NCBI GenBank assembly: GCA_026225255.1
Contig: JAMFSJ010000059.1
Location: 38,311-102,310 of the forward strand
Source: Methylacidimicrobium fagopyrum
GTDB lineage: Bacteria > Verrucomicrobiota > Verrucomicrobiia > Limisphaerales > UBA11358
DNA: 64,000 bases
Direction of reading: 5' to 3'
Below, piece by piece: positions 7,763 through 32,140 of this stretch. The notes beneath the pieces were generated by a model, which saw only the letters and a program-made list of their open reading frames with translations, was not told the DNA's origin and searched no databases. Each line of letters opens with the position of its first letter. Positions within the stretch are counted from its first letter, which is position 1. Position numbers and translations under genes: made by a program.

Positions 7763-7784
7763 CCGCATCCGTTGATTTGACGGA

Positions 7785-7898
7785 CTCATAACGAGTGGTT
7801 GAGGGACTGGCCCGATGACACCACGGCAACCGATTGAACTTTGGTTTCAATGTCAGGTGCCAATTCCAGCCCAGCATCATTAGCTTGGGAAAAATGAG
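7785..7898 (+). promoter_or_regulatory. SAM-I (S-box) riboswitch aptamer
   Basis: CTCATAACGAGTGGTTGAGGGACTGGCCCGATGACACCACGGCAACC...AGGTGCCAATTCCAGCCCAGC...GGGAAAAATGAGAAG. P1 pairs CTCAT (7785-7789) with ATGAG (7894-7898). All conserved S-box blocks are present: GAGGGA, CUGGCCCGAUGA, GGCAACC, GGUGCCAAUUCC. Confidence 0.9.
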
Positions 7899-7919
7899 AA
7901 GCGATGCACAACCGTTTTG

Positions 7920-24750: not shown

Positions 24751-25365
24751 TTATTGTTGCGCCGGCGGGGCGTCTTGCGGCGGTGGACCACCAGCATCGT
24801 TGCCGCCATTGCCGTCTTGCGGCGGGCTCGGACGTTTGCCGAGATATTCATCGCGTGACAATTTGCCGTCGCCGTTTTTATCCAACGTCTTCAAAACTGC
24901 GCTGGCATTGGCGATTTCATCTGCATCAATGACGCCGTCATGATTCGCATCTAACGCACGCACGATCGCCGGAGTCGGCGGACGATGTCCGCGCGAACCG
25001 AATCCCGGGCCATCATGCGGCGGCGCATTCGTGTCATCCGTCGGCACATTGGCTTCACTGTCTTTTCCTTCAGCCGGAGGTGCCGGGCGTTTGCCGAGAT
25101 ATTCATCAGTCGTCAACTTGCCGTCGCCATTTTTATCCAGCGTCTTCAAAACTGCGCTGGCATTGGCGATTTCATCCGCATCAATCACGCCGTCGTGATT
25201 CACATCCAACGCGCGCACAATCGCCGGCAGCGGTCGATGTCCGCCCGGACCCCCATCATGACCGCCCGGCGGTGGTCCGTTCCGATCATCATCTTGGGCG
25301 CAGGCAGTGAACGCCGCCGCGCCGAACGCCAACGAGACCATCATCATTTTTATTTGTGTTTTCAT
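24751..25365 (-). CDS. Secreted EF-hand calcium-binding protein with internal duplication
   Basis: 204 aa with a signal peptide. Two copies of ...AIVRALD(V/A)NHDGVIDADEIANASAVLKTLDKNGDGKL..DEYLGKRP.PP. Each copy carries two DxNxDG EF-hand loops. Confidence 0.85.
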   Translation of the reverse strand: MKTQIKMMMVSLAFGAAAFTACAQDDDRNGPPPGGHDGGPGGHRPLPAIVRALDVNHDGVIDADEIANASAVLKTLDKNGDGKLTTDEYLGKRPAPPAEGKDSEANVPTDDTNAPPHDGPGFGSRGHRPPTPAIVRALDANHDGVIDADEIANASAVLKTLDKNGDGKLSRDEYLGKRPSPPQDGNGGNDAGGPPPQDAPPAQQ

Positions 25366-25423: not shown

Positions 25424-25825
25424 TTAAGCGGGCATTAAGATCCCCGTTTGGGTCAACGTCTGTTGCATTGTCGCCAGCGGAAACGGTTTATGGATCAATC
25501 CACAAAACCCGTGCGCACGCGCTTCCGCTTCCGTCAAAATCCGTTTGCCCGTCACCAACAATACTTTGAGCGACGGCGAAATGGCGTGCAGCCGTTGGCC
25601 CAATTGAATGCCATCCATACCCGGCATTTCCAGATCCGTGATGACACATTGAAATTGTTCCGGAGCCTCTGCAAACGCGGCGAGCGCCGCGTGCGGTGAA
25701 TCAAAACACACCGCCTCCGCCCCCGCCAAGTGCTCGGCCAGATCTGAGAAGAACACCAACATCTCCGTGTTATCGTCTACGACCATCCAGCGCGTTTTTG
25801 TTTTGAGAGCAGCCATCGTTTTCAT
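25424..25825 (-). CDS. Single-domain response regulator (receiver only)
   Basis: 133 aa. WMVVDDN...CVITDLEMPGMDG...KVLLVTG is CheY-like. Confidence 0.85.
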   Translation of the reverse strand: MKTMAALKTKTRWMVVDDNTEMLVFFSDLAEHLAGAEAVCFDSPHAALAAFAEAPEQFQCVITDLEMPGMDGIQLGQRLHAISPSLKVLLVTGKRILTEAEARAHGFCGLIHKPFPLATMQQTLTQTGILMPA

Positions 25826-25882: not shown

Positions 25883-27811
25883 TTATTTTTGGGCGAGATC
25901 ACGGGCGGCCGTCGGCGGTAGAAATTTTTCATCCGTCAACGTTTTCAAAAATGCCACCAACGCCCGTTTATCCACCGCCTTCAACGGCAAGCCGCCGTCA
26001 GGATGTTTTGCCAGATTAGGATCCAGCGTCGCGCTGCGTTTCATGCCCGTGCAATAATGTTCTACCACTTCATCCAAGGTCCGAAAGCGTCCATCGTGCA
26101 TGTAAGGCGCGGTCACTGCGACATTACGCAACGATGGCACGGAAAATTTTCCGCCATCGCCCACGCGCTTCGTCGCCTGATAACGACCCAAATCACGGAA
26201 CACGGAATCCAATCCGTTGTTCGCAAAATCCTGACTCTGAAACAACGGTCCGCCGTGACAATGAAAACAATCCGCACCGAATTGCCCGTGATATGGATCG
26301 TATTCCGTGTTGAATAATTCGAAACCACGCTGTTCTTGCGCTGTGAATTGCGCGCGCCCATTCATCACGCGATCAAATTTCGCGTCGAACGAAACTTGCA
26401 CGAGGAGAAATTGCTCCAGCGCCCGGGCGATTTTATCGACGTTGATTTCCGGTGAACCAAATGTTTTCGTGAACATCCGGTGATAATCAGAATCGGCTGA
26501 AATTTTCGCGACCGCGCTCGCCAGCGATTCGTGCATCTCGACGGGATTTTGAATCGGCTGCAAAACCTGTTCGCGCAGCGTGGCCGCCCGTCCGTCCCAG
26601 AAGAATGAATTTCTCCATGCGAGATTTTCCAGTGGCATCGCGTTGCGTGTGCCGAGCAAGCCATCCACACCGCGACTGAACCGGCGCGGCTGCGCGAACG
26701 CCAGATGTGGATTGTGACAGTTCGCGCACGATTGCCGGTCGCCCGATGAAAGTCGGCGGTCGAAAAATAATTGGCTGCCCAAGGCGACGCCTTCGACCGT
26801 GAGCGGATTATCGCGCGGCAAATCCGGCGTCGGCGCGAATTGCGAAATCGTCAGCCGATACGGCGTCGCGTCCGGCGCTATCATAATCTTGGTGGCACGG
26901 GCGTCTCGCCCGTCAAATCCGGCGTCCCGCCGGATTTCGTTTGAGGTGAGATTGGTTTGTGGTGTGCGCATACTAACGACTTGCCCATGCGCATCAGCAG
27001 TTTCGGGCGCGACGCCCGAAATAACGGGCCAGAGGCCCGTGCCACCCACCGAAAACGCCGCGATCACATTCTCCCGCAATTGAACCGCTAACCAATCATT
27101 CGTCCGCGAATGGCTGGTGTCCGTCCGGTCACTTAATTCAATTTTGTTTGGCGCCGAAAATATTTCACCGACATCCAACGCGATTTGCATTTCGCGACTG
27201 CTGCTCAAATCCAAATCCACCGGCAACTCGACTGTCATCAATTCACGGTCGGTGGCGATGTGATACGAAAAGCCGCTTTGCTTGCCGCCGTCCAGCCAAC
27301 CGCCTTCGAGCGCGAGAAAAACATATTCGTGCGACCAATCCCAATACAGATGATTTACCTGCGGATTCAGCGGATGCCCCGCCGGCCACTGCGTGGAATT
27401 GCCGTGATTTACTGGCGGTTCAAGCCCGACTTGAAAACGCGCGCGGTCATAACTACCGGTCGGAACCTCAGTTAAAGTGAAGTTAGTTTTGCCATCGCGG
27501 GCGCTGATATAGGCGAACCAATTTGGCTGACCAATCCACGTTCCATCCGCGCGACGCAAGGCAAAATTTGACAGCAGAAAATCGAGTCGCGTGACGGAAA
27601 TTTTTTGACCCGATGACGTTTGATTTACAAGCTTGTCGAAACCCAATGGTGCGCCGTTGAATTTTGCGATGAGGTTGACTTCAAGATTCGCTGAAGCTCC
27701 AAACGTCAAGCTCCAAGCACCAAAGAACATCCAAAAGCCAAGCACCAAGCATTGCGCGCTTCGCATATTCATTCGCTTCAACAATTTGAAATTCGTCATT
27801 TGAAATTTCAT
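25883..27811 (-). CDS. Fusion protein: MbnP-like N-terminal domain + repeat-derived linker + di-heme cytochrome c peroxidase/MauG/MbnH-like domain
   Basis: 642 aa with a signal peptide. The C-terminal half has two CxxCH heme motifs: CANCH (26714-26728) and CFHCH (26255-26269), in CCP/MauG-family context (LGSQLFFDRRLS...). The N-terminal approx 250 aa (RLDFLLSNFAL, HLYWDWSHEYVFLALEGGW) resembles the MbnP partner family by memory only. Confidence 0.75.
   Translation of the reverse strand: MKFQMTNFKLLKRMNMRSAQCLVLGFWMFFGAWSLTFGASANLEVNLIAKFNGAPLGFDKLVNQTSSGQKISVTRLDFLLSNFALRRADGTWIGQPNWFAYISARDGKTNFTLTEVPTGSYDRARFQVGLEPPVNHGNSTQWPAGHPLNPQVNHLYWDWSHEYVFLALEGGWLDGGKQSGFSYHIATDRELMTVELPVDLDLSSSREMQIALDVGEIFSAPNKIELSDRTDTSHSRTNDWLAVQLRENVIAAFSVGGTGLWPVISGVAPETADAHGQVVSMRTPQTNLTSNEIRRDAGFDGRDARATKIMIAPDATPYRLTISQFAPTPDLPRDNPLTVEGVALGSQLFFDRRLSSGDRQSCANCHNPHLAFAQPRRFSRGVDGLLGTRNAMPLENLAWRNSFFWDGRAATLREQVLQPIQNPVEMHESLASAVAKISADSDYHRMFTKTFGSPEINVDKIARALEQFLLVQVSFDAKFDRVMNGRAQFTAQEQRGFELFNTEYDPYHGQFGADCFHCHGGPLFQSQDFANNGLDSVFRDLGRYQATKRVGDGGKFSVPSLRNVAVTAPYMHDGRFRTLDEVVEHYCTGMKRSATLDPNLAKHPDGGLPLKAVDKRALVAFLKTLTDEKFLPPTAARDLAQK
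26891..27046. mobile_element. MITE-like 156-bp element (GGTGGCAC...GTGCCACC termini), copy A, inside the coding frame
   Basis: ggtggcacgggcgtctcgcccgt-caaatccggcgtcccgccggatttcgtt ... tttcgggcgcgacgcccgaaat-aacgggccagaggcccgtgccacc. It has the same architecture and about the same length as copy B at 30496-30650. Confidence 0.6.
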
Positions 27812-27860: not shown

Positions 27861-29594
27861 TCAGTTGATCGTAAAACTGCTCACCGTGTAAGGCGGCGGA
27901 CCGGAGGCGAACGTGACCACGATGCTCTGCGCGCCAGTCGCGGCGTTGGCAGGAATCGTGAACGCAGCGACTACCGTGCCTTGCGCCGTGCAGGTCGCGC
28001 TTGAAGCGGTGATGCCGTCCATCGTGACGCTTGTGATGGGCGCACCGGCGGGCGGATTCGGCGGCGAACTCGGCAGCGTAATCGTGATGAGAACCGATTG
28101 ACCGCGATTCGCACTGCCGCCGGGCGCCACGCTGCTGACGGCAAAAAGCGTTGTGCCCGCCGAATCAAAACTCGCGACCGCCGTGCGTCCAACGCGATAA
28201 AATTGTTTATCGAGCGACGTTAAATTCGTGTAATTGCCATTGATTTGATTGGGTGAAACACCAGTTTTTAATACCGTCCAATTGGAAAAATTGGTGGTGC
28301 CTTCGACTTGATAACTCCCGCCTTCCAACGCGCTCCAACTCAACGTGACCGTGCCATTTTTCGCGCCGGGCGAATTGAGCGTTGCCACGAGATTCGTGTT
28401 GCCCAGAAAATTGGTGGCCACGGTTTCCGAAATTGCCGTCACGCTGCCGCCCGTCGGACTGCCGTAATAGCCGCGCCCGATATTATAAGGAAACGTCGGC
28501 GCGCCATTCGTGTTGATGCTCACAAAATACGCGTAGGTGCCGTTCGGAAATTCCGGCGTGACGCACCAGCGACCGTTGTATTCATCCAGATCAAAATCCA
28601 CGCCCTGAACGTAACCGCGATCGCCGAGATAATCGTTGTCCTCCATGTAACGTCCGAGCGGATAACTCGTGCTCACGTTCGGTCCGGTTTGATTGGAACT
28701 CACGTTGAACAAGCGCGCCGACCACGCGGGAATGGTTTTGCGTCCGTTCACCGTGAGATTACTGGTGCCGAAATTTCCGTTGCGCAAAACATAGCCGGAA
28801 ATCATCCGGCGAATGGCACTGTTCGCATTCGTCGCCACGGAATAACCGTAAGGCCCGTAGAGCGGATAACCATCCGCCGTCCATGCGAGAATCGGCGAAT
28901 GCTGCGCCGGCGCGTTGGTGGACTCGGTGTAAATTTTTGTCACCGAATTAAAGTCCACATGATCGCCGAGTTGATAACGCAACGCCGGCGGATTCGCGTG
29001 ATAATGATATTGTCCGCCCGCTTGATGCGCATTGTTCGGATCAAAGCTTGCGCCTTCATTCACATACGCATCACGATTCCAATAGCCGGTGATATTTTGC
29101 GCGTCCGTATTGGAAACCGTGCTCCAACTGTAGGCGTCCCAGCTATTGAACATCGCCGCGCCATCCACAAAATATCCGATCGGTCCGCCGCCCGTCGAGG
29201 TCTTGGTCGTCGGCACCGCGGGACTGCGCGGAAAGCGATAGAGTGCCTTCTGATTCACCGGCCAATTCGGAAACGGTTGCGTGTGCTGCGCGTTGAGATA
29301 CCACGGTCCCATTACAAAACTGCCCAGTCCGGTGCTGCGAATATAGACCCAGTTCGACGACGAATAAATTTCCTGCACGCCGCAATACGCCGGCAACGAT
29401 TGGATCGTCGTGCCGTTCGTCCAACTCGTTTGCGAAAGGCCATTCGTGCGCGAAATATCATTGGTATAAATGCGCGCGTATTGTCCGGCGTTGGTGGTGA
29501 ACCATGAATTAATCTGTGGATCGGCAAATGTGTTTTGAAGCAAGAAGCCGAACGTAACGACAATGATTACAAGGCGGGTAAGATTTGTTTTCAT
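27861..29594 (-). CDS. Secreted YHYH-domain protein with C-terminal Ig-like/FYRV-type domains
   Basis: 577 aa with a signal peptide. The AHQAGGQYHYHANP motif defines the YHYH family. Confidence 0.75.
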   Translation of the reverse strand: MKTNLTRLVIIVVTFGFLLQNTFADPQINSWFTTNAGQYARIYTNDISRTNGLSQTSWTNGTTIQSLPAYCGVQEIYSSSNWVYIRSTGLGSFVMGPWYLNAQHTQPFPNWPVNQKALYRFPRSPAVPTTKTSTGGGPIGYFVDGAAMFNSWDAYSWSTVSNTDAQNITGYWNRDAYVNEGASFDPNNAHQAGGQYHYHANPPALRYQLGDHVDFNSVTKIYTESTNAPAQHSPILAWTADGYPLYGPYGYSVATNANSAIRRMISGYVLRNGNFGTSNLTVNGRKTIPAWSARLFNVSSNQTGPNVSTSYPLGRYMEDNDYLGDRGYVQGVDFDLDEYNGRWCVTPEFPNGTYAYFVSINTNGAPTFPYNIGRGYYGSPTGGSVTAISETVATNFLGNTNLVATLNSPGAKNGTVTLSWSALEGGSYQVEGTTNFSNWTVLKTGVSPNQINGNYTNLTSLDKQFYRVGRTAVASFDSAGTTLFAVSSVAPGGSANRGQSVLITITLPSSPPNPPAGAPITSVTMDGITASSATCTAQGTVVAAFTIPANAATGAQSIVVTFASGPPPYTVSSFTIN

Positions 29595-29754: not shown

Positions 29755-30405
29755 ATGAGAATCCTGATTGTCGAAGACGAACCTGATTTGCTCGCGAGCC
29801 TTGCGCAGGCCTTGCGCGAAGAAGGCTACGCCGTCGACACTGCTGATAACGGCGACGACGGACTCTTCAACGCCGAAGGCACAGACTACGACGCCATCGT
29901 GCTCGACGTGATGTTGCCCGGCTTGGACGGCTGGGAAATTCTCAAACAACTTCGCAAAACCAAAAAAACTCCCGTGCTCATGCTCACGGCGCGCGACCAG
30001 ACGCGCGATCGCGTGCGTGGCCTCGACACCGGTGCGGACGATTACGTCGTCAAACCGTTTGATCTCGAAGAAATTTTTGCCCGCCTGCGCGCGATCATCC
30101 GTCGCAGCGCCAATAAAACAACGAACGTCATTGCAATCGGCGAGGTGAAAATTGATACCGCCGCGCGCACTATTCTACTCAAAGAAAAGTCCGTCGAAAT
30201 CACCGCACGCGAATACGCGCTCGTGGAATTTCTCGCGTTGCATCGTGGCGAAGTCGTCACGCGCACGCAACTTTACGAACATCTCTTCGACGAAAACGAA
30301 AGCTCGCTTTCAAATCTACTAGATGTCCACGTTTCCAACGTCCGTAAAAAACTGGGTGCGGAATTTATCGCCACCCGCCGCGGCCACGGCTATTGCATTG
30401 AATGA
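29755..30405 (+). CDS. OmpR/PhoB-family response regulator
   Basis: MRILIVEDEPD...AIVLDVMLPGLDG...TARD, plus a winged-helix C-terminus (ITAREYALVEFLALHRGEVVTR...). The ORF is open from 29695, but the canonical start is ATG 29755. Confidence 0.9.
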   Translation: MRILIVEDEPDLLASLAQALREEGYAVDTADNGDDGLFNAEGTDYDAIVLDVMLPGLDGWEILKQLRKTKKTPVLMLTARDQTRDRVRGLDTGADDYVVKPFDLEEIFARLRAIIRRSANKTTNVIAIGEVKIDTAARTILLKEKSVEITAREYALVEFLALHRGEVVTRTQLYEHLFDENESSLSNLLDVHVSNVRKKLGAEFIATRRGHGYCIE

Positions 30406-30495
30406 ATGAAAACAGCCAATAACCATTACACGTCTGCCACGCGCTTTCCCAATTGGAGGTTGGATGTTTCCAGATCTTATTTTCAAACTGCTCCG

Positions 30496-30650
30496 GGTGG
30501 CACAGGCCTCCGGCCTGTAAAATCCGGCGTCCCGCCGGATTTCGTTGGTGACTTACATTGTTTTTTGACTCGCGCAAACCTAAAACCATTCCCGCCGCAA
30601 ACAGTTTCTGGCGAGACGCCTGAAACAACAGGCCGGAGGCCTGTGCCACC
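30496..30650. mobile_element. MITE-like 155-bp element, copy B, between the regulator and kinase genes
   Basis: ggtggcacaggcctccggcctgt-aaaatccggcgtcccgccggatttcgtt ... tttctggcgagacgcctgaaac-aacaggccggaggcctgtgccacc. The terminal inverted repeats are about 23 bp. Confidence 0.6.
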
Positions 30651-30679
30651 CGGAAACGTTTGAAATCTCGCCTTAAAAT

Positions 30680-32140
30680 ATGATTCCTAAATCCATCAAA
30701 TGGCGATTGCAACTCTGGTATGGCCTGATTCTCGTGGTCGTGCTCGCGGGTTTTGGTTTTACCGCGTATCAACTGGAACGCGGACGGCAGTTGGGTCGCA
30801 TTGATGACGAGTTGCATCGCCGTTTTGACGTGTTGGCCAAGGCGGTCCACGGCCCTCCGGGACAACGTGGCGAACCACGCTTCAACCGCCCGCCACCGGA
30901 CCAGCTTCCGGAGGATGGCCCGCCTGGACTGGATTTTAATCCGCCGCAACAATTTAATTTGCCGCCGCAAGCCGCCAATTTGTTTGATGCGAACAGCGCG
31001 GATCAATTTTATTTCATTATCCAAGGGCGAGGTAAAAATGAAATTGCCCGATCCGAAAATGTCCCGCGTGCAGAAATGGGTTTTAACCATTTTTTTGAGC
31101 AGGAAAATCACCTGGATAATCCGCCGAAACCGGCACCGGCGGAAGATTTTAAGGATGAGCGGGTTATTTTTCGCAGTCTGCCTTCGGGCGAAACCATTTT
31201 GATCGGGTGTTCCATCGTGCCGGAATTGAATGAACTGAAAGCCACGGCCTTGAAACTCACTTTGGTTGGCGGAATTATTTTATTCTTCGGCCTCGCGGGC
31301 GGTGGTTGGTTGGTTTCGCGCGCCTTGCGGCCGATTGAAAACATCAGCGCGGCGGCAATAAAAATTTCTGCCGGGGATTTGTCCCAACGTATCAACAGTG
31401 CCGAAGCCGAAAGCGAACTCGGGCAACTTGCGGCGGTTTTGAATGCCACCTTCGCGCGACTTGAAGCTGCGTTCGCGCAACAGAAACAATTCGCGTCCGA
31501 TGCCGCGCACGAACTGCGCACGCCGGTCACGGTCATCCTCACGCAAACGCAGACCGCGCTGAACCGCGAGCGCGAACCGGCCAGCTACAAACAAACGCTC
31601 GAAGCTTGCCAGCGTGCGGCGCAACGGATGCGGAAGTTGATCGAATCGTTGCTCGCGCTGGCGCGACTCGATGCCGGACAGGAAGTTTTGAAACGGCTGC
31701 GGTTTGATTTCGCGAAAACAGTAGATGATTCCATCGCTTTAGTTGAACCCATCGCGGCTGAACACGGCGTAAAAATTTTCACTGAGCTCGAATCGTTGGA
31801 AATCAACGGCGATTCGGAACGGCTCGCGCAAGTTGTCACCAATCTTTTGAGCAACGCCATCCAATACAATCGTGCGGACGGCGAAGTGCGCGTGAAATTG
31901 AAATTGGAAAACGGCCTGGCGATTCTAACCGTCGCCGATTCCGGTCATGGTATTGCGAACGCAGATTTACCGCGAGTTTTTGAACGATTTTATCGCGCCG
32001 ATAAATCACGCACGGGCGCGGGCAATACTGGATTAGGGCTATCTATTTGTCAGGCCATCGTCACTGCGCACGGAGGCACGATTGAAGTTTCCAGCGAGGA
32101 AAATGTGGGGACGACTTTTACCGTGCGGTTGCCGATATAA
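30680..32140 (+). CDS. Sensor histidine kinase (2 TM, periplasmic Pro-rich loop, HAMP, HisKA, HATPase)
   Basis: H-box FASDAAHELRTPV, N-box LLSNAIQYN, G-boxes DSGHGI and GTGLGLSI. Confidence 0.9.
   Translation: MIPKSIKWRLQLWYGLILVVVLAGFGFTAYQLERGRQLGRIDDELHRRFDVLAKAVHGPPGQRGEPRFNRPPPDQLPEDGPPGLDFNPPQQFNLPPQAANLFDANSADQFYFIIQGRGKNEIARSENVPRAEMGFNHFFEQENHLDNPPKPAPAEDFKDERVIFRSLPSGETILIGCSIVPELNELKATALKLTLVGGIILFFGLAGGGWLVSRALRPIENISAAAIKISAGDLSQRINSAEAESELGQLAAVLNATFARLEAAFAQQKQFASDAAHELRTPVTVILTQTQTALNREREPASYKQTLEACQRAAQRMRKLIESLLALARLDAGQEVLKRLRFDFAKTVDDSIALVEPIAAEHGVKIFTELESLEINGDSERLAQVVTNLLSNAIQYNRADGEVRVKLKLENGLAILTVADSGHGIANADLPRVFERFYRADKSRTGAGNTGLGLSICQAIVTAHGGTIEVSSEENVGTTFTVRLPI

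Follow-up and report, generated by a model that had tools for sequence, protein, structure and literature searches.

A REPIN-like palindromic repeat in the interdomain linker of an old MbnP-MbnH fusion protein

Did a repeat weld an enzyme to its protein substrate? This question is raised by a 64,000-nucleotide (64-kb) stretch of contig JAMFSJ010000059.1, which was analysed at its full length and is referred to below as the window. One open reading frame (ORF) in the window encodes a protein with an MbnP-like N-terminal half and an MbnH-like di-heme C-terminal half, and a 156-bp palindromic element lies in frame between the two. MbnP and MbnH are a conserved gene pair and were separate proteins when characterised (PMC3621798). 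A first-pass annotation of this DNA proposed that insertion of the repeat fused substrate and enzyme into one polypeptide or, alternatively, that the repeat was recruited as a linker. Our own reading, which we consider likely to be correct overall, is that the fusion family is old and that a REPIN-like repeat entered it in frame as a linker without having caused the fusion. The features of the gene, in window coordinates, are:

25883..27811 (-): full ORF, 642 amino acids (aa), ATG start; codes for a signal peptide, the MbnP-like domain, a linker encoded by the element and the di-heme domain of MbnH/MauG type
27692..27811 (-): leader at the N-terminus (about aa 1-40), which from its sequence and its alignment to relatives is probably a Sec signal peptide
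27125..27688 (-): MbnP-family domain, aa 42-229, a Cys-less beta-sandwich (Pfam PF20243)
27335..27343 (-): WxW motif, W157-D-W159, invariant in 120 homologues and aligned to WNW of the MbnP structure 7l6g
26891..27046 (-): copy A of the 156-bp palindromic element, similar to REPINs and Rickettsia palindromic elements (RPEs), in frame as aa 256-307 in the place of the native interdomain linker
25913..26818 (-): MbnH/MauG-like di-heme domain, aa 332-633 (TIGR04039, PF03150; best PDB match MbnH 6e1c)
26714..26728 (-): first heme motif CANCH, C362-H366, invariant in 120 homologues
26255..26269 (-): second heme motif CFHCH, C515-H519, invariant in 120 homologues
26054..26056 (-): Y586, aligned with the MauG heme ligand Tyr294 in a profile alignment to MauG 3rn1, invariant in 120 homologues

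Recomputing the translation returned the ORF and both CxxCH motifs exactly where the first-pass annotation had placed them, and profile searches bore out its assignment of the two halves. The N-terminal domain matched PF20243 with 101.4 bits (cutoff 27; E 7e-29), aligning aa 42-229 to profile positions 3-184 of 189. The C-terminal domain matched PF03150 (CCP_MauG) over aa 340-487 with an E value of 6e-51, and its best-scoring NCBIfam model was TIGR04039 (MbnH family), of which profile positions 2-329 of 336 aligned to aa 332-633 with a score below cutoff. In the PDB the di-heme domain ranked MbnH first (6e1c, E 4e-49), ahead of cytochrome c peroxidases (about 1e-34) and MauG (4e-32), and Foldseek also placed 6e1c, the MbnH of Methylosinus trichosporium, at the top. 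W405, which is invariant in the 120 homologues, aligned with the inter-heme Trp93 of MauG in the profile alignment to 3rn1, and by alignment with MauG Y294 we regard Y586 as a putative heme axial ligand.

The translated ORF contains the sequences RLDFLLSNFAL and HLYWDWSHEYVFLALEGGW in the N-terminal half, and the core strands of this domain were modelled by AlphaFold2 (AF2) with a predicted local distance difference test (pLDDT) score of ∼90. Foldseek matched the N-domain to MbnP chain 7l6g_C (E 1.4e-6, probability 1.00, template-modelling score 0.49 on the target, 260 columns), which was its only match outside the di-heme enzymes among the 50 matches listed. At the level of sequence, a PDB search with the single N-domain sequence gave no match and one with a 14-sequence full-length profile did not recover 7l6g, while a 58-sequence N-domain profile gave a weak match to it (E 0.018).

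A search of 5.8 billion proteins for homologues of the fusion returned 2299 candidates at E<=1e-10, and the best 120, including the window protein, were listed. In all 119 others on this list (64-75% identity, mostly ∼588 aa), PF20243 and PF03150 match the same chain, and the aligned linkers show no likeness to the 156-bp element. When the N-domain was searched exhaustively by itself, 2669 relatives were found, including stand-alone proteins of ∼250 aa and proteins of ∼590 aa; distant representatives of the latter (33-53% N-domain identity) had MbnP followed by CCP_MauG in ten of ten cases tested. About 101 of the 120 homologues share a native 20-aa linker with the consensus ENVKEFSPIAELSRGTNHIE. 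In the window protein, the element-encoded GGTGLWPV...GRDARAT stands exactly in the place of this linker, of which at most the last 2-3 residues are left. Because the 119 listed homologues and the ten distant representatives are already fused without the element, the comparison indicates that the MbnP-MbnH fusion is old, that it predates the 156-bp element and that the element did not create it.

The relatives share an unrelated conserved linker at the junction, which, by the first-pass annotation's own criterion, refutes the hypothesis that the repeat fused two genes. Under that hypothesis, separate adjacent mbnP and mbnH genes were joined when the repeat removed a stop codon, a start codon and a second signal peptide. 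It draws on the position of the element exactly between the domains, on the separate nature of the characterised proteins (PMC3621798) and on the stand-alone ∼250-aa MbnP-like proteins among the more distant relatives. Against these stand the element-free fusions, most of them with the conserved 20-aa linker, and the closest relative, P0002, which is fused through an odd 24-aa linker without significant similarity to the element. We consider fusion by insertion extremely improbable. On the question of separate genes versus a fusion in relatives, gene order agrees: the listed homologues are fused, and the locus is conserved in three related loci (L001, L002 and L003). The alternative wording of the first-pass annotation, recruitment of the repeat as a linker, is apt as a description since the element now is the linker, with the amendment that most homologues have a native 20-aa linker in this place.

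The P0002 linker was also considered as a decayed copy of the element and this was rejected: the alignment score of 16 compares with a shuffle mean of 14.6 +/- 2.3, and 147 of 500 shuffles reach 16. Fused proteins of this family routinely carry the database label 'MbnP family protein', and no paper in the library searched combines MbnP, MbnH and 'fusion'.

Two points tell against our account of how the linker was exchanged. No close relative with an empty site was found (the nearest homologue is 75-79% identical), and the insertion event is therefore not reconstructed. In addition, a further step, which our account does not explain, is needed for the native linker to be lost.

We turn to the element itself, whose ends at 26891 and 27046 are exact. 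Its terminal inverted repeats measure 44 nt and are 82% complementary, and its two inverted hairpin-forming units together fold into a long hairpin; folded as RNA, the element reaches -87 kcal/mol (z = -7.6). Copy A comprises 52 codons that are free of stops in the frame used. Its termini read GGTGGCAC.../...GTGCCACC, with CGTC present only within the inner hairpins, and it is flanked by ...GGTG and AAGA.... No Rfam family matched the element. A 22-nt terminal motif is present four times in the window (0.02 expected), which also holds a second copy:

30496..30651 (.): copy B of the same element, 76% identity to copy A (E 3e-24), 3.4 kb away

Copy B is intergenic and occupies a 274-bp spacer between a response-regulator gene, which ends at 30405, and a histidine-kinase gene, which starts at 30680. 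In L001, the closest related locus, these two genes overlap by 4 bp with no element between them. The insertion of copy B may uncouple translation of regulator and kinase or add a hairpin to the operon mRNA. Copy A gives the fusion protein a longer linker (∼55 aa versus the native 20 aa), which is predicted to be disordered, with AF2 pLDDT values of 25-35 across aa 261-333.

Outside the window, a scan with the 44-nt arm pattern matched at least 120 metagenome contigs, and a profile search of these contigs gave 149 elements, of which 119 are full-length copies, most commonly 156 bp long; these counts are lower bounds (at least 119 full-length copies). The origin of the linker in a repeated palindromic element, as first proposed, is thus upheld by the terminal inverted repeats, the second copy in the window and the metagenome copies. 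For 37 of the 119 full-length copies, the reading frame stays free of stops for at least 60 codons on both sides. In-frame copies with Pfam matches on both sides were found in PriA, UvrA, a DEAD/DEAH helicase, peptidase U32, anthranilate synthase I (TrpE) and another MbnP-CCP_MauG fusion. All strong intragenic copies share the frame of the window copy, and the peptide that they encode has the consensus GGTG[VL]xPVVSGVAPET, ∼20 variable residues, EIRRDAxFDxRDAxAT. Where the reading frame extends at least 150 codons to each side, frame 0 is used in ten of ten copies, even though frame 1 is open in about half of copies.

Does this regularity mean that the peptide is a selected module, a disordered linker that is reused as a cassette and has its own function, and not a tolerated selfish insertion? 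The conservation of GGTGxxPVVSGVAPET...EIRRDAxFDxRDAxAT across unrelated host proteins, the exclusive use of frame 0 and the recurrence of linkers and surface loops as sites all speak for it. However, conservation of the peptide follows the inverted repeats of the DNA, and its variable middle corresponds to the spacer, so that constraint at the DNA level explains the conservation of the peptide. Moreover, 82 of the 119 full-length copies are not detectably within a gene (no read-through frame of at least 60 codons on both sides), and copy B of the window is intergenic. We therefore think a selected module quite unlikely.

The same element family has also entered a more distant MbnP-MbnH fusion, found at L185 5284-5438 and L156 7963-8117, where it is in frame in a loop of the heme domain. 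There the insert follows 'NLVVKL' (at about aa 439 of the window protein) and its peptide ends in ...TPVPP, not in ...RDAxAT. The element family has in this way hit the MbnP-MbnH protein family a second time, independently.

A scan of a genome collection with a 23-nt terminal motif has to be read against the ∼70 matches that we estimate to arise by chance in 596 Gb. Single matches across many phyla were set aside as uninformative for this reason. Weight is given only to the close inverted pairs, which occur mainly in metagenome-assembled genomes (MAGs) of Planctomycetota and Verrucomicrobiota, and to a 48-nt match in a Verrucomicrobiae MAG (L019).

Other palindromic inserts are found in the fusion family. 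The orthologue P0090 (L003 2869-4833) has three of them in frame. The first follows about aa 178, in the MbnP loop, the second is in the interdomain linker and the third follows about aa 439, in the MbnH domain; at their termini, the first and the second resemble the window element. Among the 120 homologues, inserts are concentrated at 3-4 permissive positions, namely the linker and the points that follow about aa 172-178 and about aa 439. Non-native linkers occur in 19 of the 120, in which the conserved 20-aa linker is absent. Two linker types recur:

Short type 'VGQASRLS...TGxTPVLPL' (n=11): P0018, P0030, P0038, P0073, P0083, P0090, P0092, P0100, P0103, P0113, P0117
Type '...PLxRPxATLSP..G.RDG.RG' (n=3): P0075, P0089, P0102

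In P0090, the DNA that encodes the 'VGQASRLS' type has arms whose termini resemble those of the window copy. In every homologue with a non-native linker the native one is gone and not merely interrupted.

What kind of repeat is this? In four priA contigs (L173, L148, L178 and L126), a 161-aa Y1-like segment lies between two copies of the element, and the reading frame of priA continues through the whole unit. The segment contains the motifs HVHMLI (HUH) and YIWNNP (YxxNP), and the unit (L173 5481-6275) is 89-100% identical across the four contigs. In L216, two tandem copies of the element stand at the same priA site without the transposase. A Y1-like segment between element copies was seen only inside priA ORFs. 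These sequence features suggest that a Y1/HUH transposase of the IS200/RAYT type probably mobilises the element. This view is weakened by the marginal match of the priA-embedded segment to PF01797 (IS200-like Y1_Tnp), at 23.6 bits with a cutoff of 23, and by the finding that the 64-kb window contains no Y1 gene.

The element had been called MITE-like (miniature inverted-repeat transposable element) in the first-pass annotation. Like the classical MITEs (e.g. Correia/NEMIS, RUP and ERIC), it is small, has terminal inverted repeats, is present in many copies and is occasionally fused in frame to ORFs (PMC10969869). Unlike them, it shows no evident relation to a DDE-type insertion sequence (IS), and target-site duplications are mostly absent: among 43 copies with exact termini, 36 have 0 nt duplicated and the rest at most 2 nt. 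The lack of duplication argues against a classical DDE-type MITE, and together with the Y1/HUH association it leads us to drop that label.

A comparison with REP and REPIN sequences and their RAYT or TIRYT transposases reveals more in common: nested inverted hairpin units, no target-site duplication, in-frame intragenic copies in replication and repair genes such as uvrA (PMC3733652) and, at the marginal score given above, a candidate Y1 (HUH) transposase-like ORF flanked by copies of the element. Di Nocera et al. 2013 described REPs inside genes of several species, many in genes for replication and repair, uvrA among them; one of these species is the REP-rich verrucomicrobium Opitutus terrae (PMC3733652). 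The window element differs in that its ends lack an evident terminal GTAG or CGTC tag, in that its unit is a fixed 156-bp composite with 44-nt arms whereas REPs measure 20-40 bp, and in that the transposase-like segment is itself in frame inside priA.

With RPEs, whose in-frame copies in Rickettsia are the textbook case (PMC10969869), the element shares a palindrome of ∼150 bp that is in frame in unrelated housekeeping genes, a conserved encoded peptide and sites compatible with the fold of the host protein (PMC10969869). The host phylum is different (probably Verrucomicrobiota, from the names of the closest homologues), the likeness drawn here is one of features, and the present family is linked to a Y1 transposase-like segment. 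On these features the element resembles the REPIN or RPE type more closely than a classical MITE. Intragenic REPs in Verrucomicrobia have already been published.

A bolder reading is that the 156-bp family is a protein-coding REPIN adapted to genes, which uses one frame only, encodes a benign disordered peptide, replaces native linkers (at least three palindromic types in 15 of the 120 homologues) and has its own Y1 transposase in frame in priA. We hold this as a tentative and rather unlikely proposal. If it is true, mobility of the element could be tied to replication restart.

An old fusion that has taken up a repeat as its linker may still work, or the insertion may have damaged it. On the latter explanation, the gene is impaired or decaying into a pseudogene, or else misassembly at a repeat has produced the in-frame read-through. 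The conservation of the native linker in ∼101 of the 120 homologues suggests that it matters, the mRNA contains a very stable hairpin (-87 kcal/mol), and the window protein is alone in its 90% cluster and may come from a MAG. However, the ORF is intact and the protein retains every residue that is invariant across the 120-homologue alignment; same-frame read-through of this element family occurs in essential genes (priA and uvrA) on many independent contigs; and at least 18 other homologues also have non-native linkers. Damage or artefact is, in our estimation, unlikely. The window protein is probably functional with its element-encoded linker, given the intact ORF, the invariant residues, the predicted disorder of the insert and the tolerance of the element in essential genes.

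What the protein would do is suggested by its likeness to the MbnP/MbnH pair of methanotrophs (Methylosinus trichosporium OB3b; PDB 7L6G and 6E1C). In that pair, Trp174 in the WxW motif of MbnP is turned into kynurenine (Kyn174) by MbnH, and the copper site of MbnP consists of the kynurenine, a His, a Met and a solvent-derived ligand (PMC11951088). The window protein shares with the pair the MauG-like di-heme domain with 6e1c as its best PDB match, the MbnP-family beta-sandwich with a conserved WxW, the predicted periplasmic location and the presumed functional pairing of parts. It differs in being one polypeptide with a Cys-less MbnP-like domain, in that both domains score below the NCBIfam equivalog cutoffs, and in its locus, which has a YHYH gene and a two-component system and not methanobactin or TonB-transporter genes. 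With MauG, which acts on pre-methylamine dehydrogenase, it shares two c-type hemes, a Tyr at the position of Y294 and a Trp at that of W93, and by analogy the expected chemistry would likewise be the remote oxidation of a tryptophan in a partner protein. In contrast to MauG, the substrate domain is unrelated to methylamine dehydrogenase, the expected product is kynurenine and not tryptophan tryptophylquinone, and the sequence match is weaker than to MbnH.

In our reading, a signal peptide is followed in a single chain by the MbnP-like beta-sandwich with its WxW motif, a short linker and the MauG-type di-heme domain. The window gene is one member of a large, old family of such single-chain MbnP-MbnH proteins in a conserved locus with YHYH and two-component genes, and in the window lineage a 156-bp REPIN-like repeat has come to lie in frame in the usual position of the 20-aa linker. 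By analogy with MbnH and MbnP, the di-heme domain would oxidise W159, in its own or a neighbouring chain, to kynurenine, giving rise to a copper site. W159 is accordingly named here as a candidate for this conversion, and the fusion could be a self-contained enzyme-substrate protein that builds a periplasmic kynurenine/copper site, as we infer from the characterised pair.

Several observations count against this chemistry. TIGR04052, the MbnP equivalog ('MbnP_like_WxW' / four-Cys motif protein), reached 26.3 bits versus a cutoff of 140 and matched only aa 112-185, and TIGR04039 reached 221.9 bits, below its equivalog cutoff of 362.85. The translation contains no Cys between aa 22 and 361, and thus the mature MbnP-like domain has none; the lack of the Cys residues associated with the family had been raised as a caveat in the first-pass annotation and is confirmed. 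By its sequence the N-domain lacks the four Cys of characterised MbnP, and the molecule name of 7l6g is indeed 'four-Cys motif protein'. The invariant H184 aligned with the His of 'WMVH' in 7l6g, with S182 at the position of the Met, and a Ser at this position weakens the case for a kynurenine/copper site. Owing to the missing Cys and the sub-cutoff TIGR04052 and TIGR04039 scores, the kynurenine/copper chemistry is an extrapolation. Finally, the AF2 model (120 sequences) was poor in the heme domain and at the interface (mean pLDDT 57, predicted template-modelling score 0.41), and we therefore draw no conclusion on docking or on modification of W159 in cis versus in trans.

At the N-terminus, a hydrophobic stretch followed by an AxA-like site, as judged by inspection, is consistent with one signal peptide, as first proposed. 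In the alignment, relatives start near M16 of the window protein, also with an AxA-type site, and either M14 or M16 may be the actual start. A protein of identical sequence (P0001) is present in an NCBI-derived collection, and the window protein is the sole member of its own 90% cluster. The neighbouring genes with conserved positions are:

27861..29594 (-): gene for a YHYH-domain protein of 577 aa (Pfam PF14240, E 1e-37), 49 bp upstream of the fusion gene
29755..32140 (+): OmpR-type response regulator (29755-30405) and HAMP/HisKA histidine kinase (30680-32140), divergent, conserved neighbours of the YHYH and fusion genes

The order of YHYH gene, fusion gene and divergent regulator/kinase pair is common to the window and L001, L002 and L003, and the YHYH gene is next to the fusion gene in all three of these related loci. 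The YHYH gene is a conserved operon partner of the fusion gene; its product is uncharacterised, and the conserved His/Tyr motif of this protein suggests a possible role in metal binding.

Directly downstream of the fusion gene are two genes, at 24751-25365 (-) and 25424-25825 (-), neither of which has a conserved neighbour position in L001. One product is a stand-alone response-regulator receiver protein of 133 aa. The other, of 204 aa, looks secreted and consists of two near-identical EF-hand-pair halves, with ALDVNHDGVIDADEIANASAVLKTLDKNGDGKL present twice. Elsewhere in the window, at 7783-7900 (+), there is an S-adenosylmethionine (SAM) riboswitch (Rfam RF00162, 76 bits, E 4e-16, full model length).

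Taken together, the enzyme-substrate fusion of MbnP and MbnH is an old and common architecture, and the story of a fusion made by insertion is attractive but wrong. Three features retain interest: a single frame is used strictly, a conserved linker has been replaced repeatedly, and priA contains a transposase-like segment in frame. Annotators and structure predictors should expect inserts of this kind, 20-55 aa long, in conserved proteins. Natural single-chain MbnP-MbnH proteins could suit the study of how a kynurenine/copper site is formed. The element also shows that palindromic repeats read in frame are not restricted to Rickettsia but are common in bacteria of soil and peat that probably belong to the Verrucomicrobiota.

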